Source: Lentimonas sp.
Lineage (GTDB): Bacteria > Pseudomonadota > Alphaproteobacteria > Rickettsiales > UBA1997
Assembly (NCBI GenBank): GCA_047628655.1
Contig: JBLHVR010000001.1
Span: 1-62,983 of the forward strand
DNA: 62,983 nucleotides
Direction of reading: 5' to 3'
Shown here: positions 39,373 to 59,376 of the stretch, one piece after another
Layout: every line of letters starts with the position of its first letter
Position numbering within the stretch: the stretch's first letter is position 1
The notes under the pieces: generated by a model
The model's input: only the letters and a program-made list of their open reading frames with translations
Told to the model about the DNA's origin: nothing
Database searches by the model: none
Translations under genes and position numbers: made by a program

Positions 39373-39483
39373 TGAAATTTTTTTAGGTAAGATTGTCATT
39401 ATTGACATTAAGCGCAATTTGTAGGTAAAATTTAGGTTTTAAAAACCCTACGATTGTACAAAACAAAAATCTTAAATCAATGC

Positions 39484-40299
39484 TTAATAAGCGGTTTGGG
39501 TGATGTATTTTTGAGCCCAATACAGCAACATTCCGAAAAACTCTATGTAGTCAATTTCAAATATTAAACAAACAAGGAATGCTAATCCTAAAGCTGGGGC
39601 AAAGGGGAAAGTGTCGTCTTTTTTAAGAAATTTCCAAATTGGACCAAAAATAATACCAAATAAACCACTTAAAATCATGAAAATTAATATTTGATGAACA
39701 CCAAGCATAAAACCAGCAAAAAAGAGGAATTTAATGTCGTCCTCACCAATCCCTTGTTTTTTGGTTAATAGAAGAAATCCGAAATGCAAACCCAAACCAA
39801 CCACCAAAAGCAAAACTCCAGAATAGTAATAATATTCAAAATTATATTCTGAAGGAATTGTTAAATGGTAAATCACTATTAGGAAGCCCAGAAAAACCTG
39901 CGTGAAATCAGGAATAAAATAATATTCTAAATCTACCACCGTCATAATCATCAAGGTCACCGCCATTAGCAGAATCAAGAATAATTTAAGACTAAAAACA
40001 GAACCTAAAGAAAAGAAAATTACCAGAAATAAGATTGCTGTTCCAACTTCAATTAGTGGGTAGCGAATGGAAATTTTTTCAAAACAAAAACCACATTTAC
40101 CTTTGAAGAAAATCCAAGAAAGAACAGGGAATAAGTGACGAATTTTTAGGCCATTTCCACAATTTGGACAAAACGAACCTTTAAAAATAAACTTACTAAC
40201 AGAAATTCTCTCGTCAGAAAATCTATGACTGGCCATTGTAATAAAACTGCCAAAACAAAGGCCAATAATTAGAATAAAAATTTCATTAATTAGAAACAT
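39484..40299 (-). CDS. pilD: Prepilin peptidase (A24 family)
   Basis: CPNCGNGLKIRHLFPVLSWIFFKGKCGFCFEKISIRYPLIE (N-terminal Cys cluster) and a polytopic body with two conserved Asp regions (DLEYYFIPD, GEDDIKF). Confidence 0.87.
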   Translation of the reverse strand: MFLINEIFILIIGLCFGSFITMASHRFSDERISVSKFIFKGSFCPNCGNGLKIRHLFPVLSWIFFKGKCGFCFEKISIRYPLIEVGTAILFLVIFFSLGSVFSLKLFLILLMAVTLMIMTVVDLEYYFIPDFTQVFLGFLIVIYHLTIPSEYNFEYYYYSGVLLLVVGLGLHFGFLLLTKKQGIGEDDIKFLFFAGFMLGVHQILIFMILSGLFGIIFGPIWKFLKKDDTFPFAPALGLAFLVCLIFEIDYIEFFGMLLYWAQKYITQTAY

Positions 40300-44292: not shown

Positions 44293-45837
44293 TTAATTAA
44301 TAAATGCCGCTTCACCCTTAATCCTGTAAAGCTCTTTCCTGTTATGTAACACCATGCCATTCCATAATTTTATGCCTACTTGAGTTGAGTTTTCTACTTC
44401 TTTCTGGGTCATCACGCTTCTTACCCTTGACTCTCCAGCGTCTTGACTGGACATATTATTGGCTATGAGATACAAACTGCGCGCCAATTGTAAGTTCTTC
44501 TTTACTCCGGTGCCATGTTCATAAATATTAGCTATTGCAACAATTGATGTCTTATTTCCCTTAGAGGCTGATTTATTGTAATAATTTAGGGCCTTCAATA
44601 TTGCTTCCTTACTATTTAGTTTATCTGACAATGAAAAACTCATTTCAAAAGGCACATATCCTTGCACTGGACGGCGCTGATAAAATTCAGGACGAGCGCT
44701 AACTTTAGGATTTGGATCAAAATCATAGCCATTATAATAAAATATCGCCGTCAATAAGGTGCTTATTGATTTTGTAAATGTAGGACTTTCTTTTGAATCA
44801 GCAATTTCCTTATAAATTTTTAAGGATTTTTCCAAATCTTTTTCCACCACATAGCCTTCCTGATACATTTTTGCCAAATAAAACTTTGCGTCCAAACTGC
44901 CCATTTTCGAAGCTTTTTCTAGCCAAAATTTAGTATTGTCCTCATCTTCCTTGGTTCCATAAGCAAATTTATACATAATTCCAAGATTAGCCATAGCCTC
45001 AACATTATTCTGAAGTGCCGCTTTTTTGTAATAATTGAAACTATCTTTGTAGCTCATTGGTACGTGAGTTCCCGATTTGTAAAACTCCGCAATAATTACT
45101 TGAGATTTATCATGATCAAGGTCGGCGGCTTTTTTAAAATAAATGAACTCTTTGTGATAAAATTTAAATGGCTCAGATTTTAGCTTCAATTTAGTAAATT
45201 TAAAATTTCGATAATCAAGAGCGAGTTTATAATTAAGTTTTCCACTATTTTTTAACTTTTCATGAAGAATATTCTGGGTTTCTTCAAAAGACTTATTTCT
45301 GGCGTTTATTTTAAAATTTTTCTTAAGAAATTTAACCATGATAAGTTTTTCTGCCTCGAGAGCTTTTTGAGAAAAATCTGAAGCCGTAACTATTTTTAAC
45401 TGAGCTAAGTCAGCAACTTTATCTTGAGCAGGTTGATTTTTGATATCCTTCGCGGCATTTTTATAAAAAAGAAGGCTTCTTGCATAATCTGGATTATTAA
45501 AAAGACCATAAGCATGAATATCTCCAAGCCTTAATGAAGAAGCGCTATTTATTGTTTTTGCCAACCATTTCATTTCATGTCGATGACTCACCCAGCGCTC
45601 TAGACCATTTTTATGTATGAGAGATATTATGTAAGCAGAAGATTTGTGCCTTTCATCGAAATTATTTTCACAAAACTTTAAAGCTTCTGAATAATTGCCC
45701 GATTTAAATAAATTTATACAACTTCTCTCGTTTTGGTAGGTAACACTACTTTTGTAATCTGTTGTGCAAGAAGCTGTAAATAATAAGATTAGGGATAATA
45801 ATAAGCTTTTTGCCGACATGCATTTCTGAAATTTCAT
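44293..45837 (-). CDS. Sel1/TPR-like repeat lipoprotein
   Basis: Lipobox LLFTASC. Several Sel1-type repeats (YYKKAALQNNVEAMANLGIMY, WLEKASKMGSLDAKFYLAKMY, YYNKSASKGNKTSIVAIANIY). The start may be at 45819. Confidence 0.8.
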   Translation of the reverse strand: MKFQKCMSAKSLLLSLILLFTASCTTDYKSSVTYQNERSCINLFKSGNYSEALKFCENNFDERHKSSAYIISLIHKNGLERWVSHRHEMKWLAKTINSASSLRLGDIHAYGLFNNPDYARSLLFYKNAAKDIKNQPAQDKVADLAQLKIVTASDFSQKALEAEKLIMVKFLKKNFKINARNKSFEETQNILHEKLKNSGKLNYKLALDYRNFKFTKLKLKSEPFKFYHKEFIYFKKAADLDHDKSQVIIAEFYKSGTHVPMSYKDSFNYYKKAALQNNVEAMANLGIMYKFAYGTKEDEDNTKFWLEKASKMGSLDAKFYLAKMYQEGYVVEKDLEKSLKIYKEIADSKESPTFTKSISTLLTAIFYYNGYDFDPNPKVSARPEFYQRRPVQGYVPFEMSFSLSDKLNSKEAILKALNYYNKSASKGNKTSIVAIANIYEHGTGVKKNLQLARSLYLIANNMSSQDAGESRVRSVMTQKEVENSTQVGIKLWNGMVLHNRKELYRIKGEAAFIN

Positions 45838-46208: not shown

Positions 46209-47930
46209 TTAAAGATGTACCGCCCCTAAAACAACCCCAGTATTTAAAGGAATAAATGATTTTGGCTCTGATGATGATCTTGGTCTTCCAGGTTCTAATT
46301 TAGAACTAACTGCAACCATAACCTCTCTTAAATAAGGTAAGTTATCTTCGCAAACCTTATCAAGGAGAATTTCTAACTTATCTTCTCCTCTCATATCCGT
46401 TAATCTATTTCTGTCTACAAAATCAGCTTTTCCATCTTTTACAAATTGCGCTGCCGCACCCACCAAATTTCTAACTCCTTGAAGTAAAATTTCAATCTCT
46501 TTGGAATTATTTTTTTTAGAATCCTCAACCAATATTTTTAATTCTCCCACCCCTACCTCAAGCCCAAGCATTTGGGAGCATTTTTTAATTAATTTTTGAT
46601 TATTTTTATCTAAAGCAAATTTAATAAGGACTTCTTGCGGTGAAGATTCTGTATTTTCTGCAGGCAAGTCTGAGGATTCTTTTAAAGGTTCTTCGCTTAT
46701 TAATTGCTTTCTTAGAGAAATAATTTGCGCATAAATTGACTCTCCTTCTTCGCCATAATTTTTTGTTAACTCAGTTAAAACAGCATCATCTTTAATTTCT
46801 GCATTAACATGTAAAAATTGCACAAATATTGCTTTTTCTTCCGAGCCTTCTAATCTAAGATTTCTTTTAACATCTCCGGATTTTTTATCTTCTTTGCTAT
46901 CATCACTTTCTTGCCAGCTCACAAATTTCCTTAATATTACACTCAAATCTTCTGTGCTAGGAAGATGTGATTTAGCGTCAGATTTCTTGCCTCCAGTCAC
47001 AACCAAACCTTTTGAATCGTCATCTAGCGCTCTTTTTTCTATTAATACTGAAGTTTGTTTTAATAAATCTGGCTGTTTAACCTTTTTAATTACTGAATCT
47101 GCTGGTGCCTTTTTTTTATTTGACGACGATTTAACGGAGGGTTTCTTTTTAGAAGTCTTTCCACCCACAGATTTATTTCCCCCCCGCTCCTCTTCTTCAA
47201 TCAACTCCTTCTCAGCTTTAGATGCCTTATCTTCAGATTCCTGAGCTCGAGTGTATTTATCTTTTTTTAACGCTTCTATCAGCCCTAATTTTTCATCTAA
47301 ATAAGAAATAACAAGGTCTACTTCTAGAAAACTTAAAGTTGTCGTTATCAATATGGAGCAGCAATTTAGCACTTCTGTTTTTATTACTTCCGGATTGCCT
47401 TCAGCCACAAAACTTAAATCTTTTAACAAATTAAAAGCCTTAACAGCCCCCCTTAAATATTCCGAGACCGCAACAAGACCTCCTGTTATGGTATCTTCCG
47501 CTTCAAACTTTTCTATCGCACCCTTTATTGAATCTTCTTCTTTTATTTTATCAAAGAAAAGTATCACACACTCCAACAGAAAATTATCTGCATTTCCAGA
47601 TATAACTCTAGAGACAAACTCCAATAACGCAGACGCCGCATTGTCAAATTCTTCATTTAATGCTTCATAGCCCTCCTCGCTGAAAGTTATTCTCTTTTTT
47701 TCTTTAGGAGTTCTTTTGCTACCGTTAGATTGAGAAACTTCACCACTCTCCAAATCCTTAATTTCATCATCCAAACTTTTTAAAGATTCTACTGCTGCAT
47801 TCTTTAATTTTAATGATACCTCTTGCAATTCTTCGAAAGAATATTCAACATTTTCTCCTTCTTCTCTGCTAGAAACATAATCATTTTGACTATCCGTCAA
47901 TTTGGCAGGAGATTGTTTTGAACTTTGCAT
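46209..47930 (-). CDS. Hypothetical 573-aa highly charged protein with no signal peptide, a lysine-rich central stretch and a short hydrophobic C-terminus
   Basis: Long uninterrupted ORF rich in E/K/S/D. Central stretch GGNKSVGGKTSKKKPSVKSSSNKKKAPADSVIKKVK; C-terminus ...FIPLNTGVVLGAVHL. It lies 77 nt downstream of the 1,172-aa gene on the same strand. Confidence 0.6.
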   Translation of the reverse strand: MQSSKQSPAKLTDSQNDYVSSREEGENVEYSFEELQEVSLKLKNAAVESLKSLDDEIKDLESGEVSQSNGSKRTPKEKKRITFSEEGYEALNEEFDNAASALLEFVSRVISGNADNFLLECVILFFDKIKEEDSIKGAIEKFEAEDTITGGLVAVSEYLRGAVKAFNLLKDLSFVAEGNPEVIKTEVLNCCSILITTTLSFLEVDLVISYLDEKLGLIEALKKDKYTRAQESEDKASKAEKELIEEEERGGNKSVGGKTSKKKPSVKSSSNKKKAPADSVIKKVKQPDLLKQTSVLIEKRALDDDSKGLVVTGGKKSDAKSHLPSTEDLSVILRKFVSWQESDDSKEDKKSGDVKRNLRLEGSEEKAIFVQFLHVNAEIKDDAVLTELTKNYGEEGESIYAQIISLRKQLISEEPLKESSDLPAENTESSPQEVLIKFALDKNNQKLIKKCSQMLGLEVGVGELKILVEDSKKNNSKEIEILLQGVRNLVGAAAQFVKDGKADFVDRNRLTDMRGEDKLEILLDKVCEDNLPYLREVMVAVSSKLEPGRPRSSSEPKSFIPLNTGVVLGAVHL

Positions 47931-48007: not shown

Positions 48008-51000
48008 TTAGAATTTTCCAACCATATTAAAGAAGAATCCTTGGCTACGATAGCTAAGGTCGGTTAAATCGTCTGAGAAATCGGTGAAATTATAGCCGGC
48101 ACCAATTTTGGCATTGTCACCAACATGACGATAAAGGGCAATAAGCGCTCCAGATTTAGCATCTTCTGCTTCTGTTGCTTCCAAATATCTGCCTTCAACT
48201 GAAAGATCCCACTTTTTAACAATATGCAAGTCTGACCTTACAATAACCAAATAGGCCGTGCTTGTGAACCATTCATTATTTTTGTTGGAAGTTGAGCGAA
48301 TTTCACCGCGTCTTAGACCTAATTTTCCACCAATTGAAAGCTGTGGCATAACATCAAAAATTGCATCTCCTGCAAATACATGACTTCTTTGCTCAAAGTC
48401 ATTGGCAGCATTAACTGCGTTTGCCGCCAATTGTCCGGCGCTGGCAAGATCGCTTAAATAGGTGTAGCGAATTAAAGCATTAACTTTGTCATTTTCAACT
48501 GGTCTGTATGCAAAAGCGTTAGAATATTCAATGTAATTGGCTTCCAAATTACTGCCCAATTCAGATTTGCTGATGGCAAAATTTGCTTCACCCAAAAAGC
48601 GCCAATCTGGAGTAGTTTGGTAGCTAAGATTATTTTTTAGTAAATAACTGTTTAAATCTCCGAGAATATTTCCCGATTCATGGCGCCATTCGGCAATGGT
48701 AGAATATTTAACTTTGTCTTTGGAATAATTAGTATTAACCGACAAAGTGCGCCTTTCAATATCTCCCGATGCTTCGTCTGAAACAATTCCTGCTTCAAAT
48801 TTTCCGCCAAAAGTCCATTTGTCGCTTGCGGCCAAATCTAGCCCAAAAGCACTTAACAAGCTGGAGGAATTGCCGGCAAATTTTTGGCTTTTTTGCTCGG
48901 TATACATTGAAAGAGAATCGGAATATCTAGATTTGGCACCAGAAACAAAAGAACTGCTGCGGCTGCGCTGGCCTAAATCGGTTCTTTGAGCATCCATTTG
49001 GTAAGTGGTGTAATAAGAAGTGCGGTCTGTGGCGCGATATTCAAGACCTAATTTGCTACCAAAACCACCATTTCCTACACTTCCCTCGCCATTTACAGTT
49101 ACTTTTTTATTTACATCATATTTTCCACCAAGACCAACACGATTATTTTTATCTCGTCCTTCGTCTCTTTTAATTGTGGCTTGAGCTGTGGCATAAATTT
49201 CGTAATTTTTTTTAACTCCACTTTCAGAAATTGGGGCATAATTTAATTTAGTGGCAAAGTCGATTCTGCGTCCATCTTCAGCAAGAATATTACTATTATT
49301 AACATTTTCGGTGCTTATTTTTAATTTCCTTAAATCATTTTTAACACCAACTGAAAAAATGCTGGAAGAATTAATTTGATAATTGGCAATTGCTTCATTG
49401 GTTTGAATATCTCCTGTTTCCTGAGCTTGCTTGAAATCAGATTTTATCTGAATTCCTAATTTGGAAGTTACAGGGAAAGTGCCATCAAAACCGAAAATTC
49501 TTACATCTTCATTGGTCATTTTTCCTGGAGCAGAATAACCCTCTTCTAAAGTTTCAAAATAAGCATTTAATTTACCAAAATATTTCTTATCGGTAATTTC
49601 TTCAAAAGCCAATGAAAGATCGGAGCGAAAAGCATTGGCTTTGGCATTTTTAACAACATTACGATCGAAACTAAATCCGCCATCAAGTGACGAAACAGAA
49701 CCACCTCCAGAGCCTTTAGATTGAGCACTTTCAAACTTCACATAAGTTTGTGGTTTATATCTTAAGGTTAAATCTCCGCCCTTTAAATCTTGATTAATTG
49801 AATCTCCGCCTTGATTGTAGGCAGTTGCCCCTATTTTAACATGGTCATTTACCCAAACTCCAACTTTTCCACCTTTGGTTAAATTGTCAATATCGGCCGC
49901 TGATGAAGTATATTCGTAATCGGCAACTAAGAAAACTGGATTTCCGCCAGAAGCACCATTACTAACCAAAGTTTCGGCATTGGAAGTAGAAGAAAGTGGC
50001 TGATTAAGCACAAGACGGCCTTGAATGTAGTTAATGTCGTAATCTGTTCCGTAAGTTAAATATTTGCTGGAAAGCACAATTCCAGAATCACGATCACGAA
50101 CTTCAACTCTTAGTCTTTCTGAGCCTGTAACAATATCTTGAACTCGTAAATAATAAAGAGAACCGCCTGTTGCGCGTAATTCTTCATAAGAAGCCAAAGA
50201 ACCTGGGTCGGCAGCAAAACCATCAAACTCAACTTTTGACTCACCAAACGAAGTGGTTTTAACACTGCGATGTTTAGCGTTAGCACCATAAAGACCGCGG
50301 CTGTAATTAATTAATTCACTGCCAGAAAGCTGGGTTTTGAAATTACCCCACATTAGACTGGTATCTCCCTTTTCCATTTTAACATAAAATTTACCCTTAG
50401 TTGGAGCATCTTCAATGGCCGTGGAATCATCACCATAAACTGGGTAATAGGAATTCGGGTCTAATCTTTCTAGTAAATAGCGTGGATCTTTGGAGGTAAA
50501 ATTGGAGAATAAATCTTCAATTGGTTGCTCCTGAGTGTCGGCGCTGGAAGTTAAAATCCAGTCATCTTGAAGTTTTCCTTTTAAGTAAAAAGCAAATCTT
50601 CCATCAAAATAAGTGCTGCCTTTATATTTTCTGGAATAATCTTGAGTAACTGTTGAAGCTGGACCTGAAACATTGTTTTGTCCAATTGTTAAATCGGCCA
50701 ATGCCACATAGAAAAGGTCGTTTTTTGGAATAGTTAATAATCTGGTTAAATCAGAAATTTCGCCTTTTTCATCTTTAATTTCAACATCCACGATATGATC
50801 TCCCGATGGCACAATTTGCTTATCTGCAAATCTACCATTATCGGCTAAAGGAATATTACGACCAGAAACTGATATTGTGCTATTTTTAGCAACAGAATCA
50901 CCATTGGTGGTAATAGTTCCACCCTTCAAAGGAATATTCTGAATTGCCAGATGACTTTCACCATAACCGATATTTTGCTCGCGTTTTAGACTTTCCTCAT

Positions 51001-51526
51001 TGCCAATTAATCTTTCTGAATCGAGTAACTTTAGAAATTTTGGCGCAGTTTCATCGAATTGCCCTTTGCCATTATAAACCCTTAAAACATACTGAATTTC
51101 ATCATCAAGCAATTGCTGTGGAATTTCCAAATCAACGCTTTGATTTAAATTAGGTTTAATTGTAATGGTTTTAAAAGGTGTTGTTTGAGTTGATTTATCG
51201 ATTTTGAAAAGCCTAATTTCAGCCTTTTTAATGAAAGCTAAATAGTTCGAATAAGGCGTAAATGAAACTTTTTCTCCGCGAGCAACGCCATTTGGATAAG
51301 CCGTAATATTAAGTTTTGGATCAAGTTCTAAAGAATCAAAACGAATTTGAACATTAGATTTCTTAAGCTTTAAATCGTTGCAAGCCTGTTTAGAGCCATC
51401 TTCGTCATTAATTGTAACGCTAAAAGGAGAGTCTTTTTCTTTTTTAGTACGACAATCTAAATCTGATGATAAAGCCTGACTTGAATAAATGGTTAAAGCG
51501 GATAATAAGATAATTAGTTTTTTCAT
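48008..51526 (-). CDS. Large (1,172 aa) predicted outer-membrane beta-barrel protein with a ~400-500-aa N-terminal soluble region
   Basis: Signal peptide MKKLIILLSALTIYSSQALS. The C-terminal half shows alternating hydrophobic/polar strands rich in G, Y, S and N, ending ...GFFFNMVGKF (terminal aromatic beta-signal). The ATG overlaps the upstream stop (ATGA), with AGGAGG 7 nt upstream. Confidence 0.7.
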   Translation of the reverse strand: MKKLIILLSALTIYSSQALSSDLDCRTKKEKDSPFSVTINDEDGSKQACNDLKLKKSNVQIRFDSLELDPKLNITAYPNGVARGEKVSFTPYSNYLAFIKKAEIRLFKIDKSTQTTPFKTITIKPNLNQSVDLEIPQQLLDDEIQYVLRVYNGKGQFDETAPKFLKLLDSERLIGNEESLKREQNIGYGESHLAIQNIPLKGGTITTNGDSVAKNSTISVSGRNIPLADNGRFADKQIVPSGDHIVDVEIKDEKGEISDLTRLLTIPKNDLFYVALADLTIGQNNVSGPASTVTQDYSRKYKGSTYFDGRFAFYLKGKLQDDWILTSSADTQEQPIEDLFSNFTSKDPRYLLERLDPNSYYPVYGDDSTAIEDAPTKGKFYVKMEKGDTSLMWGNFKTQLSGSELINYSRGLYGANAKHRSVKTTSFGESKVEFDGFAADPGSLASYEELRATGGSLYYLRVQDIVTGSERLRVEVRDRDSGIVLSSKYLTYGTDYDINYIQGRLVLNQPLSSTSNAETLVSNGASGGNPVFLVADYEYTSSAADIDNLTKGGKVGVWVNDHVKIGATAYNQGGDSINQDLKGGDLTLRYKPQTYVKFESAQSKGSGGGSVSSLDGGFSFDRNVVKNAKANAFRSDLSLAFEEITDKKYFGKLNAYFETLEEGYSAPGKMTNEDVRIFGFDGTFPVTSKLGIQIKSDFKQAQETGDIQTNEAIANYQINSSSIFSVGVKNDLRKLKISTENVNNSNILAEDGRRIDFATKLNYAPISESGVKKNYEIYATAQATIKRDEGRDKNNRVGLGGKYDVNKKVTVNGEGSVGNGGFGSKLGLEYRATDRTSYYTTYQMDAQRTDLGQRSRSSSFVSGAKSRYSDSLSMYTEQKSQKFAGNSSSLLSAFGLDLAASDKWTFGGKFEAGIVSDEASGDIERRTLSVNTNYSKDKVKYSTIAEWRHESGNILGDLNSYLLKNNLSYQTTPDWRFLGEANFAISKSELGSNLEANYIEYSNAFAYRPVENDKVNALIRYTYLSDLASAGQLAANAVNAANDFEQRSHVFAGDAIFDVMPQLSIGGKLGLRRGEIRSTSNKNNEWFTSTAYLVIVRSDLHIVKKWDLSVEGRYLEATEAEDAKSGALIALYRHVGDNAKIGAGYNFTDFSDDLTDLSYRSQGFFFNMVGKF

Positions 51527-54500
51527 CTCGCATCCTCCTTTTTAATTAACTTCTTTTTGACTTTTGTGTTCTCACAACAATCTTTAATTGAGTCTTTAAT
51601 CTTTCCAGAAGTTTCTTTTAGGCGCTGTTTAGAAAGTTTCTTATCTTCAGATTTTTCTTTTTGATAGTTAATTTTAACCAAAGTTACTCCCTCTTTAATT
51701 TTTTCATGAATTGTTGCCAAAGCCTTAGCCCATTCTTTTTTCAAACTAACAGAACCTTTCTCAAAAGCTTCGTCTTTTAAATCAAGCTGCAGAGTTTTAC
51801 TTAGAGAGGCACCAAAATTTAGCTTGGTCATTTTACCGCGAGTTAAGCGCACAACTCTTGGATTTTCGGAACTTACTTTATATCCACTTGGAAGAGTTCT
51901 GGTGTCTAATTTCATGATGAAATTACTGCCGCGATCAGCATCTGGAATTTGAGCGCAAGCAACATGGAAGCGGCCATAATCATCAGTTGTAACCAACAAA
52001 CCATTAACCGTTACAACTCTAACATTAGGAATTCCAACTTCTCCCTCATCGTGATATCCACTATTATTGGTGTCGTCAAAGACTTTGCCGATAATTTCTG
52101 AACAATCAAAAATCGGATCAGGAACCACATTTACCGTGGCAATTCCAACATTGGAAATTGTATTTGAGCCGGTGCTATCAAGAATATAAGCCCTATTATC
52201 ATATTTCCCAGTTTGAACACCAGTACCGACAACAAGGAGCATATTAACTTCAATTATGGACTTTGCAGCCAAGTTGTTTCCTGTCCAAGTTAGCACGCGT
52301 CCATTTTTAATGGGTTCTTTACTAATGCCATCAATTGACGCACTTCCTTCAACATATTTGAAACCTGGAGGCATGGTATCGACAATCATGCTGTTGTTAA
52401 AGACTATATTAGTAGTGTTTTCAACCTTAATTTTATAAGGAACTAAACTACCGACACTAACATTTATCAAAGGCGATGTTTTGGTCACAACTACGCTATT
52501 TGAGGTGGCCGGATCAAGTGGAATATGGTTGTTGAAAATTTCTGCTGAAGTTGCAAGGGTAATATCAAAAGTCTTAAAATATTGAGTTGTGTCCTGATTC
52601 GTTCCAATTAAAGAGTCCGTATTGCCAATACATGAATCTTCATCATGTGGAGTAATGCCAACTACGGGAGCAGAGCTGCTACTCTGAATATTAGCTGGAT
52701 TTATAATTGTTCCAGCAATAATTTTATTAGTACAAACGGGAATAGAAGTTGAAGGAGCATTGTTATATCCAGAAGGGTAAGTGGTGATGGTTAAAGTATA
52801 ATCACCATTTGGAGCGCTTGGATTTAACAAGAATTGATAAAACCCACTAGAACCAGTAGTAAAAGCTGAACTTCCACTAACTAAATCATCTGCTGGAGTA
52901 AATGTTCCGGTTCCGCTGTAAGAAATAGTAATTACAGCATTTTCAATTGGATCTCTAGTAGTTGAATCATAAACCACACCTGAAGGATCAAGAGGAAGAC
53001 TTTGATGAGTGATATTATCACCAGCAGAAAGCTGCATATTTTCTAAAATATGATTCTTCACATCAGCTCCTGAAGGGTTGTCAGTTGTAATTGTTCCACC
53101 CCCATTAATATCAACACCATTCTCATTAGTTACAGCTCCACCAAAAATCATATTGGTATTTGGTTGGCGGAATTGAATGTTGTAACCAGCTCCTGGAGCA
53201 ATTCCACTTAAGGTGTAAGTTCCATCAGAAGCTGTTGTGGCAGTTTGAACCACACTTCCATTTAATATCAACTCAACTTTCCAACCAGATAAATCTCTCT
53301 CACCAACTCCAAAAATTTGATCTTGATTATCGTCAAGCCAAACTCTTCCACTAACAGTTGCGGTTGATGAAATTCCAACTGAGTCAGAAGCACTATTATT
53401 CCCTTGGAATCCTTTGGTTTCATTGCCACCAGAAACAGTAACATTATTTATCAAAACTTGACCCAAAGTTCCATTAGCCACAGTAACTCTAAGTTTGATA
53501 GCCTTAGCGGTTACTCCGCCATTTACTACGCTATTAGTAGTACAAGTTAAAGTACTGGTTCCAGCCGCTCCACTACAACTCCAACCATCAGCAGAAACAA
53601 CTTCAGCAATAGTAATTCCAGCCGGCAAAGTATCTACAACAGTAATTGCACCAGAAGTTGCGACCGATCCAATATTATCAACAACAATTGTGAAGACTCC
53701 CGTACTAGAATATTCCCCAAAGCTTGAAGGGTTATGGCTTTTGGCGATAGTCAAATCCACCGTATTATCTGGAACTTCAGCAAAATTATATCCACCAGAA
53801 ACAGTATCAGAATTAGCAATATCAATGCTGGCAATTCGACTGCTAGTAGTAGTTGGACTAGATGCGGTTCCGCTAGAACCAACTGTAGTAGTTCCGTTTG
53901 TGGTTCCTGTTGGCTGAGATAATTGATCAATTGTGTAAGTTCCAGCTGGAAGTCCAGTAAAGCTGAAAATTCCACTACTGTTAGTAGTCACGCTTTGACT
54001 AACAACAGAATTACCATTAGAATCAGTTCCGGTTAGCTTTAAAGTAATGTTATTTAAGCCATAATCACTGTTATTTTCTAATCCATCATTGTCATAATCT
54101 AGAAATATTGAACCGGAGATAGTTTTGCTATTAGGAATTTCAGCAAAATTATTACCGCTAGTTGTAACATTTGGTGGTAAAATTATTGAACTAATCTTAC
54201 TTGGAGTAACCAGAACTCCTGTTGCAGTTCCCGAAGTTCCTCCATTTAGAACCGTTCCGGCAACAGTTAAACCATTATTACTATTTGCTGGCTGAGTTGG
54301 TTGTAAAATTGAGTAAGTTCCAGGTTCAATATCTGCAAAGCTGTAATTACCATCCGAATCCGTCTCTTTGTCGTCAATGAAATCATCAGAGCTGTTTAGA
54401 AGCTGAATTGTAACTCCTGAAATTCGATCATCAGCACCATTTTGAACTCCGTTATTATTCTCATCTAAAAAGACCGTTCCTGAAATTGTACTTGGCACAA

Positions 54501-57500
54501 CTTCGGCAAAATTATTATCAACAGAACCACTAATTTCACTTGCTACACCGTCACCTTTTAAATCAATTCCCGTAATTTGACTGGTCGTACTAGTTGGATT
54601 TAGAGCACCTCCAGGGTCTCCAGTACTACCATTAGAGCTTACAATTGCGCCCTTGCTTGTAATACCATTAATAGTTCCGGTTGGTTGTGCATTTTGACAT
54701 ACTGAATAGATTCCAGCACTTAAATTAAAGAATAAGTAATTTCCTCCAACATCTGTGACTTTAGTATCAAGTAAACTTCCTGCGCAGGTTGCCCCACTTC
54801 TAAGTTCAATAGAAACACTAGAAATTATTTCATCAGTTCCAAAATCAAAAGTGCCATTAGGAGAGGTGTCATTATCTTTGAAAACTTTTCCTGAAATAAA
54901 TCCGGCAGTTGAAACATCCAAAGTAGCATTAGTTGGCTGTTGGTTGTTACCGGCAGTTGTTTTCAGTGCGGCGGCTGGAATGTTATTAATGTAAGTTCCA
55001 ACCGTCGTAGCTGTTACATTTACACTAATTTGACAACCGCCAGATGGAATTGAAAGGCCACTGGATACAGTTACTTTATCGCCACTTGCCGTCACTGTTC
55101 CGATGCAAGTTCCTTGATCCAAAGCCGGAGTTCCATGAATGACAAGATTTCCAGGAGAAGTTGGCAATGAATCAACTAAATCAGAGGTCAAAGTAATTGC
55201 CGCACTATTATCATTGGATAATGATATTGTTAATTTTGAAACCCCTCCAGCTGACATTACAGCAGGAGAAAATTCTTTACTAATTACTGGTGGGTTAGAA
55301 ATAATGATTTGAGCACTAGTTGGCTCTTCATTAGTTACGCCTTCAAAAGATGTTACATTTCCAGCTGGAATTGAATCGGTATGAGTTCCAAAAATATTAC
55401 TTACAACGTCAACCGTAATTGTGCAGGTGCTGATTCCTGAAACCGTGGCTCCAGTTAAAGCAATACTAGTTCCTGAAGCAGGAGCACTTACTGATCCACC
55501 AGTACAAGTAGTTGAAGCATTTGGTGTTTGAGAAATTGCCAGATTTGCCGGCAAAGCATTAGTTAAAGCAACATTAGTTAATTCGCTAGAGTTGGGGTTA
55601 GTAATTGCAATAGTCATGGTTTTTGGTGTGCCAGCAGTACTAGTTGCATCTCCAGTAGTGAAAGTTACCGGATTTCCCAGATCTAAAGTTTTAGAATCAA
55701 TCGCTAAATGAATTTCTAGAGGAGATTTAACTCGCAAAATATCAGTTGCAGGTTCTGCATTGTTACCTTCCTGACCTCCAAGAGTGGCAACCAGAGCCTC
55801 AGCAGGAATGGTATTGGGATAATCTCCTTGCACGGCAGCAGTTACATCAGCCTCAAAAGAACATCTTGTGGGACTAGATCCTGAAGCAGCAGGAATAGTG
55901 GCTCCAGAAATTGTAACTGAAGTTGAAGTACTGCTAATAGTAGCACCAGAGCATGTTGTGGTTATATTAGGGTTCTCCGCAAGCGTAAGTCCACCTTCTA
56001 AAGTATCAGTTACTGAGGCGTTAGAAGCCGGATTAACTGTTGGGTTAACTAAGGTTACCTTCAATCTCGATCTTTCACCTGGTTTAATATTGTTCGGCGT
56101 AAAGTTTTTAGTAATACCAATACTAGTCTGCGTATTAAGATTACCTTGTGCAAGAGATGCATTGCTTAACCCTTGATCACTGCTAATTGCACCGACTGGA
56201 ATTGTATTAGTGATACCTACTGGCTGAATTGAAATTATATTGGCACTAAAAGTACAGCTTGATGTAAAGGCCGGCACAATTGTGCTGGCTGGCAAGGTAA
56301 TTCCAGAAACACTAAGTGAGGTGCCGTTACTAGTTGCAACAACTGTTCCACCGCTACAAGTGGTTGATTTCTGTGGATTTGGGGCAATTCTCATGCCATT
56401 TAAAGCGCCGCCACTAGTTCCATCAACAGTGAAATAGTCAGTCACACTTAAATTAGTTAAAGCTGTTGAACCAGCGGTAATTTCAACGACTAACTTACTA
56501 ACTTGTCCTGGAAAAGTAATTATGCTTGGTTGAGCTGTCTTAGAAAGACTAACTCCAACGCCAGCACTAAACTTTAATGGTCCAACTATGGGGCTTTGAT
56601 TAGAAATATTGCCATCAGCAGTTATATTTCCAACCGGAATAGTATTTACCCAGTCTGAATTACCAGTGGCATTCACATTAAATAAAACATCGCAAGTTGC
56701 ATTTCCACCAATTGTAATTCCACTAACAGTTATGCTCGAATTTCCAGCCACTCCGCTAAAAGATGGAACTCCACCACAAGTTGTGCTGGCACTAAATGGA
56801 TTTGCCAAAACCATGCCGGTAGGCAATGGATCGGTTAAGGAAAGATTAGTAATTCCAACATTCCCACTATTACTCAACCTAATTCTGACTGTTGAATTTC
56901 CTCCCGAACTAACTGTATCTGGCTCAAAAGTTTTGCTTGCTTCAATAGTTGAGCTAAAGGCTATATTAGCAGTGTTAGAAATTGCTCCGGTAGAAGCTGA
57001 AGTGCTATCAGCTCTATTGTGAGTAGCATCAGCAACAGCAAAATTATTATAAATTCCAGCTGCCGCAACAACATCAACTTCCAATTTGCAAGTTCCCTTA
57101 CTTCCAAAACCACTATCCAATCTTTCTGGAATAGTAGCGCTATTCATAGTAATTGAATTAGAATCAGCCGTTGCAGTAATTGACGCTCCAACACAAGTGC
57201 TAGAAGCGTTAGCTGGAGATGAAATTTTCATTTGCCCACCACCACTTACTGCACTAGGTAGACTGTCACTAATTGAGGCATTAGTTAAAGCATTAGCCGA
57301 TGCATTGGAAAGTTCCATAGTCATTCGGGTCACAACTCCTTCGTTTAAAGGTCCTGCTGGGTCGAAACTTTTAGTAATAGTTAATATATCGCCATCAACT
57401 GTGGTATCGGTTGTATTGGAAGCACCACCATTACAAATATCTACTCCGCCAGAATTGTAACAAACTGAACCCGCTCCTAATGTATTGGTGATAGAATCGC

Positions 57501-59376
57501 CATCGGAAGCGTTAATGGGAGTCATAACATAAAAGGTTACTGAACAACTTCCTGAGGCAAAGCTATCGAATCTGGCGGGAACGCTTGTAATGTTAAAAAC
57601 TGCAGAACCATCTCCCAAAGAAGAAGTTGTGCTAAGTCCACTACAAACACCAGCTCCACTGACAGTAGTTAAAGTAGGTGTGTAGTTAACACCGTCAATT
57701 ATTCCTGTTAAAAAAGTGCCACTATCCAAACTGTCAGTAATTGCCAAATTACTAATTGTAGAGTTTTTCCAATTTTGAACTGTCAAAACATATCTAACTG
57801 GCTCTCCCGGAGCTGGATTTGCTGGAAATACTTGTTTACTAACATTTAAATCATCAGCGATCAATAAAGAGGCAGAGGTAGAATCTTGAACGAAAACCCC
57901 TGTTGTTAACGTAGTAATATCTGCTTTCTGAATTTCGTGAGTAACAGCAAGAGGAATTCCAGCAACTGCAATAGTGCCAGTATATTCAAGTGTAATTGTG
58001 CAAGTTTCACCAGCGGCAATTGTGGTATCTGCTGCGCTCAAAATTCCATCTCCAACATGTTCAATTCCGGCTCCACCACCAACTATGCTGTATGTGCCAC
58101 CTGATCCAGTTCCTGAACAAACAACTGGTTGAATATTATCGATCACTATTCCATTGGAAACTCCTCCATCAATTGGGTTATCAATAAATTCATCAATAGT
58201 TATGTCAGAATCACCATTATTGGCAAAAGTAATAGTTAAAGTATCAGACTGTCCACTCGCAATTGATGGATTATTAAAGGCGGTAGAAACTACAAGAGGA
58301 GATCTAGTGCGAATTCTAGCTGTTGCATTAGCAGGAACAAAACCAATATCACTATCAAAATCAGTAGAACCATTAATTGTGTTGGTTTCACGAGGAGTTT
58401 GATAACCACCATTAGTGTGGTTTGCTTCCACATAAACTAATATTGTACAAGATTCACCTGCAGCAATTGTTCCAGAATCTACACTTACAGAAGTATCTCC
58501 AATAACCACGGCTGGGTTAAAGATTGGCGCAATTCCAGATCCAGTGCAAGTAGGAGCAGCAGGAATTGAGGCGATTTTAATTATTCCTAAAGAATTTAAA
58601 ACTGGAAAAGTGTCAGAAACACTAAAATTTTCTACAGGGAAGATATTAGGATTGGCAACAGTAATAGTTAATGTTCGAACTGCTCCACCAAGAATTGCAA
58701 CATTATTACTAAAAGATTTGCTTATGGTTGGAAGTAAAATAGCGGCAACATTAACACTTTGACTTACTGATCCTTGGTTTTTCACTGTAGAGCCGTTATC
58801 ATCACCCATTACAGACTCATCATCAATTGTGTAACTATAACTTGTTGCCACAGCATCAGAAGTTCCTGCAGTTACTGGAACATAAATTGAGCATGACCCA
58901 TCCGCACCGCCGATTGATTGTGGAGGAATTGATATAGGTGGCGTTGCATTATCTATTTCAATTTCCTGACCCCCAATTGTCGCTCCTAAAATTCCCGATG
59001 TGTTATTAGCCGCATTACCAGGATCAATACATTTAAACTTTGGTATTCCGGCAATTTTTAAACCATTTGGTAAGGTTCCAGGAAGAAATTTTCCGATTTT
59101 TGCACCATCAAAACTAAGACTAGTGACCGGATCAGAAACATTATTGTTAGAAAGCGTTATCCTAAGTAAGGTACTAGTACCAGGATTAATGGAAGATGGG
59201 GCGCTAGGGAAAAACTCTGGAAACTCTGTTTCAAGAAATGGGTCTGTAAGTGTGGTTTGGTCTCTAGGAATTGTTACTCCAGCACCAATGCCGGCAAAGG
59301 ACATGTTGGCGCTTAAAATAAAACAAGAGAAACTAAAGACAAATAGAGCTGTCGTAAGTAATTTTCTTAATAACAA
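51523..59376 (-). CDS. Giant (2,617 aa) secreted repeat protein / putative adhesin (Cys-pair Ig-like modules, SdrD-B/Cna-B-like and DUF11-like domains)
   Basis: Uninterrupted 7.85-kb ORF with a TTG start and signal peptide (...FILSANMSFA). It has ten tandem ~115-130-aa modules, each with a ...(T)TC.G...C... Cys pair. Five SdrD-B-like units follow the pattern ISG.VF.D.N.NG...G...V.L.....TD..G.Y.F..L..G.Y. Two classic DUF11-like units are present (LTIAKSHNPS...; VVVTKTSPLINV...PGFKYVEGS). Confidence 0.88.
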   Translation of the reverse strand: MLLRKLLTTALFVFSFSCFILSANMSFAGIGAGVTIPRDQTTLTDPFLETEFPEFFPSAPSSINPGTSTLLRITLSNNNVSDPVTSLSFDGAKIGKFLPGTLPNGLKIAGIPKFKCIDPGNAANNTSGILGATIGGQEIEIDNATPPISIPPQSIGGADGSCSIYVPVTAGTSDAVATSYSYTIDDESVMGDDNGSTVKNQGSVSQSVNVAAILLPTISKSFSNNVAILGGAVRTLTITVANPNIFPVENFSVSDTFPVLNSLGIIKIASIPAAPTCTGSGIAPIFNPAVVIGDTSVSVDSGTIAAGESCTILVYVEANHTNGGYQTPRETNTINGSTDFDSDIGFVPANATARIRTRSPLVVSTAFNNPSIASGQSDTLTITFANNGDSDITIDEFIDNPIDGGVSNGIVIDNIQPVVCSGTGSGGTYSIVGGGAGIEHVGDGILSAADTTIAAGETCTITLEYTGTIAVAGIPLAVTHEIQKADITTLTTGVFVQDSTSASLLIADDLNVSKQVFPANPAPGEPVRYVLTVQNWKNSTISNLAITDSLDSGTFLTGIIDGVNYTPTLTTVSGAGVCSGLSTTSSLGDGSAVFNITSVPARFDSFASGSCSVTFYVMTPINASDGDSITNTLGAGSVCYNSGGVDICNGGASNTTDTTVDGDILTITKSFDPAGPLNEGVVTRMTMELSNASANALTNASISDSLPSAVSGGGQMKISSPANASSTCVGASITATADSNSITMNSATIPERLDSGFGSKGTCKLEVDVVAAAGIYNNFAVADATHNRADSTSASTGAISNTANIAFSSTIEASKTFEPDTVSSGGNSTVRIRLSNSGNVGITNLSLTDPLPTGMVLANPFSASTTCGGVPSFSGVAGNSSITVSGITIGGNATCDVLFNVNATGNSDWVNTIPVGNITADGNISNQSPIVGPLKFSAGVGVSLSKTAQPSIITFPGQVSKLVVEITAGSTALTNLSVTDYFTVDGTSGGALNGMRIAPNPQKSTTCSGGTVVATSNGTSLSVSGITLPASTIVPAFTSSCTFSANIISIQPVGITNTIPVGAISSDQGLSNASLAQGNLNTQTSIGITKNFTPNNIKPGERSRLKVTLVNPTVNPASNASVTDTLEGGLTLAENPNITTTCSGATISSTSTSVTISGATIPAASGSSPTRCSFEADVTAAVQGDYPNTIPAEALVATLGGQEGNNAEPATDILRVKSPLEIHLAIDSKTLDLGNPVTFTTGDATSTAGTPKTMTIAITNPNSSELTNVALTNALPANLAISQTPNASTTCTGGSVSAPASGTSIALTGATVSGISTCTITVDVVSNIFGTHTDSIPAGNVTSFEGVTNEEPTSAQIIISNPPVISKEFSPAVMSAGGVSKLTISLSNDNSAAITLTSDLVDSLPTSPGNLVIHGTPALDQGTCIGTVTASGDKVTVSSGLSIPSGGCQISVNVTATTVGTYINNIPAAALKTTAGNNQQPTNATLDVSTAGFISGKVFKDNDTSPNGTFDFGTDEIISSVSIELRSGATCAGSLLDTKVTDVGGNYLFFNLSAGIYSVCQNAQPTGTINGITSKGAIVSSNGSTGDPGGALNPTSTTSQITGIDLKGDGVASEISGSVDNNFAEVVPSTISGTVFLDENNNGVQNGADDRISGVTIQLLNSSDDFIDDKETDSDGNYSFADIEPGTYSILQPTQPANSNNGLTVAGTVLNGGTSGTATGVLVTPSKISSIILPPNVTTSGNNFAEIPNSKTISGSIFLDYDNDGLENNSDYGLNNITLKLTGTDSNGNSVVSQSVTTNSSGIFSFTGLPAGTYTIDQLSQPTGTTNGTTTVGSSGTASSPTTTSSRIASIDIANSDTVSGGYNFAEVPDNTVDLTIAKSHNPSSFGEYSSTGVFTIVVDNIGSVATSGAITVVDTLPAGITIAEVVSADGWSCSGAAGTSTLTCTTNSVVNGGVTAKAIKLRVTVANGTLGQVLINNVTVSGGNETKGFQGNNSASDSVGISSTATVSGRVWLDDNQDQIFGVGERDLSGWKVELILNGSVVQTATTASDGTYTLSGIAPGAGYNIQFRQPNTNMIFGGAVTNENGVDINGGGTITTDNPSGADVKNHILENMQLSAGDNITHQSLPLDPSGVVYDSTTRDPIENAVITISYSGTGTFTPADDLVSGSSAFTTGSSGFYQFLLNPSAPNGDYTLTITTYPSGYNNAPSTSIPVCTNKIIAGTIINPANIQSSSSAPVVGITPHDEDSCIGNTDSLIGTNQDTTQYFKTFDITLATSAEIFNNHIPLDPATSNSVVVTKTSPLINVSVGSLVPYKIKVENTTNIVFNNSMIVDTMPPGFKYVEGSASIDGISKEPIKNGRVLTWTGNNLAAKSIIEVNMLLVVGTGVQTGKYDNRAYILDSTGSNTISNVGIATVNVVPDPIFDCSEIIGKVFDDTNNSGYHDEGEVGIPNVRVVTVNGLLVTTDDYGRFHVACAQIPDADRGSNFIMKLDTRTLPSGYKVSSENPRVVRLTRGKMTKLNFGASLSKTLQLDLKDEAFEKGSVSLKKEWAKALATIHEKIKEGVTLVKINYQKEKSEDKKLSKQRLKETSGKIKDSIKDCCENTKVKKKLIKKEDAR

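Follow-up and report, generated by a model that had tools for sequence, protein, structure and literature searches.

Giant adhesins of Gram-negative bacteria are known to be exported by type I, type V or type IX secretion or by the chaperone-usher pathway. Many proteobacterial fibrillar adhesins carry a Sec signal and a C-terminal OmpA-like 'anchor', and to our knowledge these have no assigned outer-membrane route. Classical autotransporters (type Va) run in a single chain from a signal peptide through an N-terminal beta-helical passenger to a C-terminal barrel with a terminal aromatic residue, depend on Sec and have no dedicated inner-membrane or ATP-driven component in their locus. In two-partner secretion (type Vb), adjacent genes encode a large Sec-dependent exoprotein (TpsA), recognized through an N-terminal module, and its dedicated 16-strand Omp85/POTRA barrel (TpsB). 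Inverse autotransporters (type Ve, intimin/invasin) are load-bearing single chains in which a periplasmic peptidoglycan-binding LysM domain and a 12-strand barrel precede an external Ig-like chain. LapA-type adhesins are giant repetitive proteins devoid of a Sec signal, which are threaded through a TolC-like channel by type I ABC and membrane-fusion partners and held by a folded, N-terminal periplasmic retention module. SprA, the 36-strand type IX translocon, works with PorV, Plug and a motor on many cargoes bearing a C-terminal signal domain, and has been termed the largest known barrel (10.64898/2026.03.07.710327). Fibrillar adhesins of the Acinetobacter silvestris B9T28_05395 type combine a CLIPPER (DUF11) stalk with a C-terminal OmpA-type module (PMC12617251, PMC10952558); the outer-membrane partner and export route of such OmpA-'anchor' adhesins are not described in either paper.

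The window analysed here is the whole 62,983-nt stretch of Lentimonas sp. contig JBLHVR010000001.1 (assembly GCA_047628655.1). It contains the two minus-strand open reading frames of 2,617 and 1,172 aa from which the preliminary description had started. It is close to certain that their products, a giant repeat protein and a barrel protein, are partners. We propose that the two genes constitute one envelope machine, a surface fibre with its own outer-membrane barrel for export and anchoring, and give this reading a probability of roughly 0.6. The pair is laid out as follows:

51523..59376, minus strand: giant fibre gene, 2,617 aa, TTG start (ORF and translation)
48008..51526, minus strand: barrel protein gene, 1,172 aa (ORF and translation)
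51523..51540, minus strand: coupling junction, with AAGGAGG at 51540-51534 and the ATG at 51526-51524 overlapping the TGA at 51525-51523

The giant gene ends with ...AAG GAG GAT GCG AGA TGA, which places AAGGAGG 7 nt 5' of the barrel ATG; the ATGA overlap and the strong AGGAGG in the last codons of the giant gene had been correctly pointed out beforehand. Related loci were compared at the 77 sites with upstream DNA among the first 82 (L001-L082). Because the same 4-nt overlap (ATGA or GTGA) is kept at 53 of these 77 loci, in many phyla, it goes beyond chance. A 1-nt TAATG overlap is found at 7 more. Such coupling may keep the two proteins in fixed stoichiometry.

The TTG at 59376 is the only workable start of the giant gene. 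It yields a proper signal peptide, (M)LLRKLLTTALFVFSFSCFILSANMSFA with cleavage before G, and its alignment with the signal peptides of orthologues, whose conserved mature N-termini (A-x-A followed by LGASVT...) fall in line with the giant, supports this start. Beyond the Sec signal peptide, we found ten DUF7933-like domains, five SdrD_B-type domains, two DUF11/CLIPPER domains and a small C-terminal domain that may be degenerate OmpA-like. Pfam matches, all over gathering scores, were obtained with DUF7933 (PF25564, E 7e-105), SdrD_B (PF17210, 5e-45) and DUF11 (PF01345, 6e-29), and an NCBIfam match with TIGR01451 (E 6e-22). The features of the giant are:

59293..59376, minus strand: Sec-type signal peptide, residues 1-28, putative cleavage ...SFA/G (sequence and orthologue alignment)
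54913..59214, minus strand: ten DUF7933-like Ig-type repeats, residues 55-1488 (iterative profile search within the protein)
53797..54918, minus strand: three SdrD_B (CnaB-type) domains, residues 1487-1860 (Pfam and profile search)
53377..53757, minus strand: DUF11/CLIPPER domain, residues 1874-2000 (best Pfam stretch and profile search)
53041..53370, minus strand: fourth SdrD_B domain, residues 2003-2112 (Pfam and profile search)
52507..52989, minus strand: prealbumin/CarboxypepD_reg-like region, residues ~2130-2290 (sub-threshold Pfam, approximate bounds)
52126..52494, minus strand: last CLIPPER domain, residues 2295-2417 (Pfam DUF11 E 3.5e-9; AF2 pLDDT >90)
51802..52098, minus strand: last SdrD_B-like domain, residues 2427-2525 (AF2 model; conserved block)
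51541..51795, minus strand: beta-alpha-beta-alpha-beta tail with a CC motif, residues 2528-2612 (AF2, hhalign, PDB profile matches)

Cysteine positions indicate one cysteine pair in each DUF7933-like repeat. DUF7933 is among the isopeptide-domain families in which disulfides are common, and some DUF11 domains are devoid of the residues that form the isopeptide bond (PMC12617251). The last CLIPPER domain matches the CLIPPER structure 9IFR (Foldseek TM 0.77, normalised to the target), and further Foldseek matches of the giant are SdrD and Gram-positive pilins. Taken together, its stalk domain types are those of Gram-positive pili, MSCRAMM stalks and a Gram-negative fibrillar adhesin (Foldseek; PMC12617251). 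The best-conserved stretch is the last SdrD_B-like domain (mean identity 67% over block 2401-2500), with two invariant cysteines in the alignment columns, and we propose that this domain is a barrel-proximal or lumen-resident module. Over its full length the giant is ~50% identical to orthologues of ~2,575-2,640 aa from Alpha-, Beta- and Gammaproteobacteria, Desulfuromonadota and Nitrospirota. For an adhesin, so nearly constant a length (~2,600 aa) and this level of identity across phyla are unusual, and would also fit a structural role.

The tail, whose sequence reads as first quoted, was modelled as beta-alpha-beta-alpha-beta with pLDDT ~90 (AF2). It aligns in register with the OmpA domain of the partner family at a statistically weak hhalign probability of 42% (E 2.6e-4). 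Its best PDB matches are all OmpA-like (PomB, Omp38), weak at E 0.05-0.2, and no Pfam family matched it. Positions aligned to GHTD...N and NRR, motifs in the OmpA-domain consensus of the partner family, are not conserved in it. The preliminary description had seen OmpA-C-like spacing devoid of the peptidoglycan-binding residues in the last ~70 aa; the fold model, hhalign and the PDB matches lean weakly in that direction, and the tail may be a degenerate OmpA-like domain. A tail is present at the C-terminus of the giant in every related locus with upstream DNA, and in the window it has diverged further than in any other member (20-32% identity). That the barrel protein of the window lineage passed its OmpA domain on to the giant was rejected as an explanation, since all giants have the tail. 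Its presence is independent of whether the partner has OmpA domains.

The 1,172-aa protein starts with the signal-peptide-like MKKLIILLSALTIYSSQA, which is not a lipoprotein signal, and ends with ...NMVGKF, both as anticipated. Its features are:

51473..51526, minus strand: signal peptide, residues 1-18, putative cleavage ...SQA/L (sequence)
50732..51352, minus strand: two beta-sandwich domains, residues ~59-265 (AF2, pLDDT 76-93)
48011..50719, minus strand: predicted giant beta-barrel region, residues ~270-1172, with C-terminal Phe (AF2 DSSP)
50393..50497, minus strand: invariant motif region Y-Y-P-V-Y-G-D-D-S-T...D-A-P-T-x-G-K-F-Y-V, residues 344-378 (invariant columns; pLDDT <50)
49934..50200, minus strand: second conserved low-confidence insert, residues 443-531, with R-x-T-G-G-S-L-Y-Y (alignment and AF2)

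The AF2 model (pLDDT 72, pTM 0.60) is a membrane-type barrel, as had been expected, with long strands almost unbroken from residue 270 to the C-terminal Phe; 33 of these lie within residues 550-1171 alone (DSSP). The protein is predicted to fall in the size class of SprA with ~34-42 membrane-type strands, the strand number, the reading as one barrel rather than two and the lumen size all being estimated from the DSSP string. An N-terminal soluble region, claimed earlier to be large, does exist, though it is confined in the model to about residues 45-265; the claim that the C-terminal half is strand-like fell short, since about three quarters of the protein are predicted to be membrane-type strand. 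From their place after the signal peptide, the beta-sandwich domains are probably periplasmic; in homologues they come after the OmpA domains. Residues 344-378 are a candidate partner-contact or plug element, as are residues 443-531.

No family match was obtained for the barrel protein in Pfam, NCBIfam or PDB sequences (the window proteins were scanned against the whole Pfam library at E <= 0.01). Most homologues possess an N-terminal OmpA domain, hence their names 'OmpA family protein' or 'MotB'; beyond this domain, their Pfam and NCBIfam scans gave sub-threshold noise, and single-sequence and profile searches of PDB sequences matched the homologues' OmpA-like domain only. The window protein itself has no OmpA domain (PF00691) according to Pfam and NCBIfam. 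At the same Pfam threshold, neither window protein contains POTRA, an Omp85-type barrel or an N-terminal TPS domain, and autotransporter, YadA-anchor and intimin-type barrel domains were not detected in them either. A YadA_anchor match in one homologue (E 0.14) is noise. Foldseek against the PDB returned outer-membrane barrels exclusively, none of them close (all TM <= 0.36). FimD was such a generic match, and no usher family was found by Pfam in the window proteins; no periplasmic chaperone gene occurs in the flanks of the pair within the window or, in the related loci inspected, among the genes called or annotated there. LptD/OstA gave no Pfam match and TM values of 0.13-0.21. ABC, membrane-fusion or TolC-like genes are lacking within ~6 kb of the pair in the window, and no type I secretion genes are conserved beside it in the other genomes examined. 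Family searches with Pfam and NCBIfam, the check proposed at the outset, thus turned up no TonB-dependent receptor, LptD, usher, Omp85 or autotransporter, and together with the comparative evidence they strongly support the original claim of a pair outside the standard secretion layouts.

The same searches bear on the idea of the 1,172-aa protein as an uptake channel, such as a TonB-dependent receptor, with the giant as an accessory capture protein. PGAP/RefSeq names several plasmid homologues 'TonB-dependent receptor', one locus so named adjoins exbB-exbD-tonB, and TonB-dependent transporters top the Foldseek list by E-value. Their TM values of 0.10-0.29, however, reflect generic barrel likeness, and the exbBD-tonB neighbourhood is absent from the other loci examined. 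Neither the window protein (E <= 0.01) nor two plasmid homologues, one of which PGAP labels so (E <= 1), matched any TonB-dependent receptor, plug or transporter family in Pfam or NCBIfam. On these scans of homologues we rejected the receptor reading of the barrel protein, and uptake by the pair as a whole seems highly improbable.

The barrel family comprises 3,540 representative clusters in at least 593 species, and more than 1,872 homologues were retrieved at 44-77% identity. Each of the 77 loci with upstream DNA has a giant open reading frame, homologous to that of the window, immediately 5' of its barrel homologue. This outcome of the neighbourhood check raised at the outset recurs in two Rickettsiales relatives and two annotated plasmids that were inspected. 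Since the genes flanking the pair differ in every genome examined, plasmids included, the unit is self-contained. Neither the downstream 573-aa ORF nor the Sel1 gene was accepted as a third component, as both are missing from every related locus.

Single-chain fusions account for 28 of the 148 representatives retrieved (2,008-6,889 aa). In the eleven with a recognisable tail, the order is passenger, tail, zero to three OmpA domains and barrel; the junctions inspected are hydrophilic and devoid of an internal signal peptide, and the passengers are made of DUF11 and SdrD_B domains. These observations weigh on the possibility that the barrel protein only anchors the giant, with another pathway exporting it, for example through the type II/type IV-pilus-like secretin at 37.8-39.4 kb. 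The window does encode this secretin and a prepilin peptidase, and cysteine pairs in every domain suggest periplasmic folding, as in type II substrates. Yet the pair travels alone, with other neighbours each time and on plasmids too, export through a separate secretin fits poorly with passengers that form one chain with a barrel of their own, and about three dozen strands far exceed the needs of an anchor. We regard export by a separate pathway as improbable.

The number of canonical OmpA domains at the N-terminus of barrel proteins is 0, 1, 2 or 3. At Elusimicrobia locus L061, two canonical OmpA domains are located inside the tail of the giant and none on the barrel protein; this giant has the layout of a fibrillar adhesin, with a CLIPPER stalk and C-terminal OmpA, followed by the barrel homologue. 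In most lineages it is the barrel protein that bears the peptidoglycan-binding OmpA domains, and in one lineage it is the giant; the window pair has none. Because such domains occur on either partner and the tail may be OmpA-like, the C-terminus of the giant and the N-terminus of the barrel protein probably lie together in the periplasm. Cell-wall tethering cannot be the whole story in the window, as its barrel protein is without an OmpA domain. This absence, and the window tail being the most diverged (20-32% identity), would fit with a barrel that is a pure secretion pore and releases the giant to the medium or matrix after transit. Against release stand the universal retention of the tail, the proteolysis that fusions would need to free the passenger, and the OmpA domains that mark the junction in most lineages and point to a load-bearing attachment; we consider release quite unlikely.

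The preliminary description had read the barrel as a dedicated translocon or anchor for the giant; synteny, the kept overlap, the fusions and the migration of OmpA domains all strongly support such a role. In the fibre-and-barrel machine that we propose, Sec would carry both proteins into the periplasm. BAM would then assemble the 1,172-aa protein in the outer membrane, where it would form a very large barrel with some three dozen strands. Its two beta-sandwich domains would hang on the periplasmic side, to which most other lineages would add one to three peptidoglycan-binding OmpA domains. Some 2,400 residues of the giant, namely its DUF7933, SdrD_B and CLIPPER domains with one cysteine pair each, would cross via the barrel and project outwards. 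Its conserved C-terminal module (last SdrD_B-like domain and tail) would remain periplasmic, at the barrel or beneath it, and fasten the fibre to the barrel; in most lineages it would tie the fibre to the cell wall as well. We infer that the fibre is exposed at the surface, passes through the barrel lumen, is retained by its C-terminus and serves as an adhesin or matrix fibre. No energy source for the export of the giant is evident.

Alternatively, the giant may stay in the periplasm as a strut or layer on the barrel protein and peptidoglycan, stabilising the envelope with no part in adhesion. OmpA-like modules on both partners would suit this arrangement, as would the unusually constant length (~2,600 aa) and sequence (~50% identity) of the giant across phyla, and the chlamydial DUF11 protein OmcB is largely periplasmic. 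However, some 18 tandem Ig-like domains are far longer than the periplasm is wide, passengers of other subfamilies vary in length from about 1,000 to >5,500 aa, and the domain types are those of external stalks. A huge barrel C-terminal to the passenger would moreover have no obvious role. A periplasmic strut is rather unlikely on balance.

Read as a fibre with its own barrel, the unit would in its logic be a split autotransporter, fused in some bacteria, whose barrel is unrelated to any type V barrel. The fused relatives share with type Va proteins the order of signal peptide, N-terminal passenger, C-terminal barrel and terminal aromatic residue, as well as Sec dependence and a locus with no dedicated inner-membrane or ATP-driven component. 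They differ by a barrel about three times larger that matches no autotransporter barrel family, by an Ig-like isopeptide-type passenger chain in place of a beta-helix, and by periplasmic OmpA-like and beta-sandwich domains between passenger and barrel, while the window unit is split and coupled. As in two-partner secretion, a large Sec-dependent exoprotein and a dedicated barrel are encoded by adjacent genes, but here the cargo gene comes first, Omp85/POTRA and TPS domains are lacking, the conserved recognition module is C-terminal on the cargo and the barrel has far more than 16 strands. With type Ve the unit would share its general logic, a periplasmic peptidoglycan-binding domain, a barrel and an external Ig-like chain acting as a load-bearing adhesin; type Ve has LysM rather than OmpA-like domains and places the passenger C-terminal to a 12-strand barrel in one chain, and no type Ve family was matched by Pfam in the window proteins. 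Like LapA, the giant would be a repetitive adhesin threaded through an outer-membrane channel and held by a folded periplasmic terminal module, but it has a Sec signal, no conserved type I neighbours and a C-terminal conserved module. SprA, which is among the Foldseek matches, is comparable in predicted barrel size, with no sequence similarity and TM values of 0.13-0.22; in contrast to its many cargoes and accessory components, one barrel here goes with one cargo. A lumen of SprA-like size could pass folded domains.

Our search of the literature on stalk domains, giant barrels and new secretion types found no description of the pair. It is quite conceivable, at somewhat less than even odds, that a single-chain barrel at least the size of SprA passes the folded, disulfide-bonded Ig-like domains of one giant cargo and holds its C-terminus, and that this unit, in split and fused forms and horizontally spread across many diderm phyla, is an unrecognised export pathway, in effect a new secretion type, and the missing route for OmpA-'anchor' fibrillar adhesins, for which the pair is in any case a concrete candidate. 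If confirmed, the candidate would bring in a new mechanism of export and anchoring at the outer membrane, with a barrel that ranks in size with the largest known. It would also account for how isopeptide- and disulfide-stabilised stalks get to the diderm cell surface, and the labels 'OmpA family protein', 'MotB' and 'TonB-dependent receptor' would be corrected. Cultivable carriers of the unit include Stutzerimonas stutzeri, Pseudomonas kuykendallii, Variovorax paradoxus and a conjugative plasmid of Sinorhizobium meliloti.

51523..59376, minus strand: ORF of the 2,617-aa fibre protein (the giant), from ORF calling
48008..51526, minus strand: ORF of the 1,172-aa barrel protein, from ORF calling

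The giant gene ends in AAG GAG GAT GCG AGA TGA, and the ATG of the barrel gene (51526-51524) shares nucleotides with this stop codon (51525-51523), an AAGGAGG (51540-51534) lying 7 nt 5' of the ATG. The barrel protein starts with the signal-peptide-like MKKLIILLSALTIYSSQA and ends in NMVGKF. Upon re-reading of the window, the two ORFs, ATGA overlap, AGGAGG, signal peptide and NMVGKF end reported in the preliminary description were all found correct at their coordinates. The earliest possible start of the giant, a TTG at 59376, yields a good signal peptide (end SFA|G) that lines up with its counterparts in orthologues and with their conserved mature N-termini.

The giant matches the Pfam families DUF7933 (E 7e-105), SdrD_B (5e-45) and DUF11 (6e-29), and an internal profile search resolved its domain layout:

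Residues 55-1488: ten DUF7933-like repeats
Residues 1487-1860: three SdrD_B domains
Residues 1874-2000: DUF11 domain
Residues 2003-2112: fourth SdrD_B domain
After the fourth SdrD_B domain: prealbumin-like region
After the prealbumin-like region: last DUF11 domain
Between the last DUF11 domain and the C-terminal domain (tail): last SdrD_B-like domain

DUF11 is now called CLIPPER, an isopeptide-bonded stalk domain, and DUF7933 is covered by the same survey (PMC12617251). The AlphaFold2 model of the last 328 residues (pLDDT 89) comprises a CLIPPER domain, an SdrD_B-like domain and a beta-alpha-beta-alpha-beta end domain at 2528-2612, the tail; Foldseek matched this model to Gram-positive pilins, SdrD and the CLIPPER structure 9IFR. 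One of the 33 cysteines lies in the signal peptide and almost all are paired, one pair per domain. Most giants also carry a conserved adjacent Cys-Cys near the tail end (consensus of the tail alignment A3; window 51526-51560, giant residues 2600-2601), replaced in some subfamilies, which could be a vicinal disulfide, a metal-binding site or a cross-link to the partner. Within the subfamily of the window giant, which spans several phyla, proteins share ~50% identity over their full length and keep a near-constant size of ~2,575-2,640 aa, while in other subfamilies the giants measure anything between about 1,000 and >3,500 aa. The last SdrD_B-like domain is the best-conserved part (67% identity).

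The barrel protein has no sequence match in Pfam, NCBIfam or PDB. Its AlphaFold2 model, built from a 48-sequence alignment (pLDDT 72, pTM 0.60), shows two beta-sandwich domains at about residues 59-265, then near-continuous long strands with short turns from residue 270 to the C-terminal Phe, 33 of them in 550-1171. Foldseek returned only outer-membrane barrels, namely TonB-dependent transporters, the 30-strand Deinococcus SlpA, MtrB, LptD, ushers and the 36-strand SprA, every TM-score being <=0.36, hence a protein without solved relative. The strand-like part, placed in the C-terminal half by the preliminary description, is predicted here from residue 270 onwards, and we estimate a barrel of 34-42 strands, presumed to be single and closed. 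SprA is called the largest known barrel at present (10.64898/2026.03.07.710327); most members of our family, typically 1,370-1,420 aa, would presumably be missing from barrel surveys that draw on the AlphaFold database, which stops at 1,280 residues (10.64898/2026.03.07.710327). Two invariant motifs, YYPVYGDDST...DAPT.GKFYV (344-378) and R.TGGSLYY (within 443-531), are poorly modelled by AlphaFold in isolation and, together with the last SdrD_B-like domain of the giant, are candidate contact surfaces. A role of the giant as a periplasmic strut would suit its unusual conservation and constant length but is a poor match for about 18 tandem stalk domains and a huge barrel.

Barrel homologues are numerous: more than 1,872 are 44-77% identical to the window protein over its full length, a search of 1.84 billion representatives gave 3,540 representative clusters with E <= 1e-3, of which 982 reach E <= 1e-30, and at least 593 species proved to carry one when a single genome of each was scanned. 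Carriers include Stutzerimonas stutzeri, Pseudomonas kuykendallii, Variovorax, Polaromonas, Janthinobacterium, Methylobacillus, Microbulbifer and Alkalilimnicola among the Alpha-, Beta- and Gammaproteobacteria, as well as Desulfuromonadales, Syntrophaceae, Nitrospiraceae, Gemmatimonadales, Acidobacteriota and Elusimicrobia. Among the first 82 loci, 77 had upstream DNA, and in all 77 the same-strand gene directly upstream encodes a giant homologue, recognisable over at least the last ~600 residues; the two genes share 4 nt (ATGA/GTGA) in 53 of these loci and 1 nt in 7 more. The two genes are therefore syntenic well beyond the window, and their products are close to certain to be partners. Since the neighbours of the pair differed in every case examined, the module consists of these two genes only. 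It also travels on plasmids: 26 PLSDB plasmids carry a barrel homologue, and on both plasmids that were inspected, including a conjugative accessory plasmid of Sinorhizobium meliloti T073 (NZ_CP021807.1; locus L087), a 'DUF11 domain-containing protein' gene precedes the barrel homologue with a 4-nt overlap. The L087 pair, a 3,362-aa giant and a 1,261-aa barrel protein, is encoded ahead of genes for an AraC regulator and a GGDEF-domain protein, which hints at c-di-GMP or biofilm-linked control, and a second copy sits on a 1.42-Mb replicon (plasmid search match H2). The nearest relatives of the window proteins (L083-L086) come from 'Rickettsiales bacterium' MAGs of one JGI sample. Their barrel proteins are 77% and 62% identical to that of the window, and the giants are smaller, at 2,343 and 2,358 aa, from which it follows that the clade has gained or lost stalk repeats. 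The GC content of the window is 32-40%.

Wherever a locus includes upstream DNA, the tail profile matches the extreme C-terminal end of the upstream giant. In an hhalign comparison with the partner family's canonical OmpA domain (alignment A4), the tail aligns in register, albeit weakly (probability 42%, E 2.6e-4), and its best PDB matches are all OmpA-like domains (PomB, Omp38) at E values of only 0.05-0.2. Neither GHTD...N nor NRR, motifs of that OmpA domain, is present in the tail in this comparison. The tail is thus probably a degenerate OmpA-like domain, as the preliminary description suspected, although the statistics are weak. In most barrel homologues an OmpA domain is found at the N-terminus, right after the signal peptide, and not at the C-terminus. 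Its number varies with lineage from 0 to 1, 2 or 3, with none in the window protein and its Rickettsiales relatives. Barrel proteins with tandem N-terminal OmpA domains, three in L047, L049, L050, L056, L060, L064, L068, L069, L074 and L077 and two in L031 and L081, extend to about 1,700 aa. The opposite arrangement occurs in an Elusimicrobia locus (L061; MAG CAIXBR010000033.1, 1-13164), where the barrel protein has no OmpA domain and the giant's tail instead holds two canonical ones as insertions (motifs IGHTDSSP...NRRV and ISHTDSSP...NRRI). Peptidoglycan-binding domains are necessarily periplasmic. As they shift between the C-terminus of the giant and the N-terminus of the barrel protein, both ends must lie together in the periplasm.

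Single polypeptides of 2,008-6,889 aa ending in the barrel account for 28 of 148 retrieved representatives, very large examples being P0246 (6,889 aa), P0309 (5,658 aa), P0255 (5,545 aa) and P0364 (5,348 aa). Their passengers, the fibre portions ahead of the barrel, are DUF11 and SdrD_B arrays, and the eleven fusions with a recognisable tail all follow the order passenger, tail, 0-3 OmpA domains, barrel. Hydrophilic linkers that contain no internal signal peptide form the junctions inspected, and these chains are therefore not merged gene calls. Neither the tail nor the OmpA profile matched several fusions (e.g., P0364, P0374, P0354), so other junction modules may exist.

We put at roughly 0.6 a model in which both proteins would enter via Sec and BAM would insert the barrel into the outer membrane; the Ig-like domains would then pass through it, while the last SdrD_B-like domain and pseudo-OmpA tail would stay at or below the barrel, locking the fibre, and canonical OmpA domains would in most lineages tether the assembly to peptidoglycan. 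One cysteine pair per domain suggests folding in the periplasm, which would account for the need of a very wide barrel. The logic is that of an autotransporter, split in the window into two coupled genes; passage through the lumen and surface exposure of the giant are inferred. Synteny, gene overlap, fusions and OmpA placement thus support and extend the initial suggestion of a dedicated translocon or anchor. The fusions and the self-contained, mobile nature of the module make it difficult to see the barrel protein as only an anchor for a giant exported by another system, and a pore for release only, while possible, is disfavoured by the universal tail as well as the fusions.

Export and anchoring by the barrel protein would work overall much like type V secretion: the fused form resembles type Va, the split form type Vb, and the cell-wall-binding and Ig-chain logic is shared with type Ve. 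Retention would be similar to that of LapA-type adhesins, and the predicted barrel is similar in size to SprA. Profile scans (Pfam/NCBIfam) gave no autotransporter, Omp85/POTRA, TPS, intimin, usher, LptD or TonB-dependent-receptor match, and T1SS genes were found neither within about 6 kb of the pair in the window nor conserved beside it elsewhere. Because of these results the pair belongs to none of the type V, LapA-type and SprA systems, in agreement with the earlier view that it fits no standard secretion layout. RefSeq/PGAP names some barrel homologues (L088, H4-H13) 'TonB-dependent receptor' or 'outer membrane protein transport protein', names without HMM support. The receptor reading could draw on L088 (Phyllobacterium sp. 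628 plasmid NZ_CP050303.1), where the pair adjoins a siderophore-interacting protein gene and exbB-exbD-tonB, but even at E <= 1 the scans gave no match to a receptor or plug family, and this neighbourhood was not seen in the other loci examined; the proximity is probably a coincidence. Proteobacterial fibrillar adhesins with C-terminal OmpA-like anchors are on record (PMC10952558; PMC12617251), neither paper describing an outer-membrane partner or route for them, and no description of the pair was found in the literature searched. The pair is a widespread, mobile, uncharacterised fibre-plus-giant-barrel system, new in that its barrel belongs to no described family and its layout to no described system, whichever mechanism holds.

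Two further genes follow the pair in the window:

46209-47930, minus strand: 573-aa ORF, highly charged, no signal peptide, no Pfam match, directly downstream of the barrel gene
44293-45837, minus strand: Sel1-repeat protein gene, after the 573-aa ORF

The stretch separating the barrel gene from the 573-aa ORF showed no terminator-like site. This ORF was rejected as part of the module, being beside the pair only in the window, with different neighbours in all loci examined, and the Sel1-repeat gene is not conserved beside the pair in other loci. Both products look like host-interaction proteins of a Rickettsiales-like organism. Two more genes head a same-strand ORF run at 35412-40299, which resembles a type IV pilus or type II-like cluster and is unlinked to the pair:

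39484-40299, minus strand: prepilin peptidase gene
37846-39417, minus strand: secretin gene
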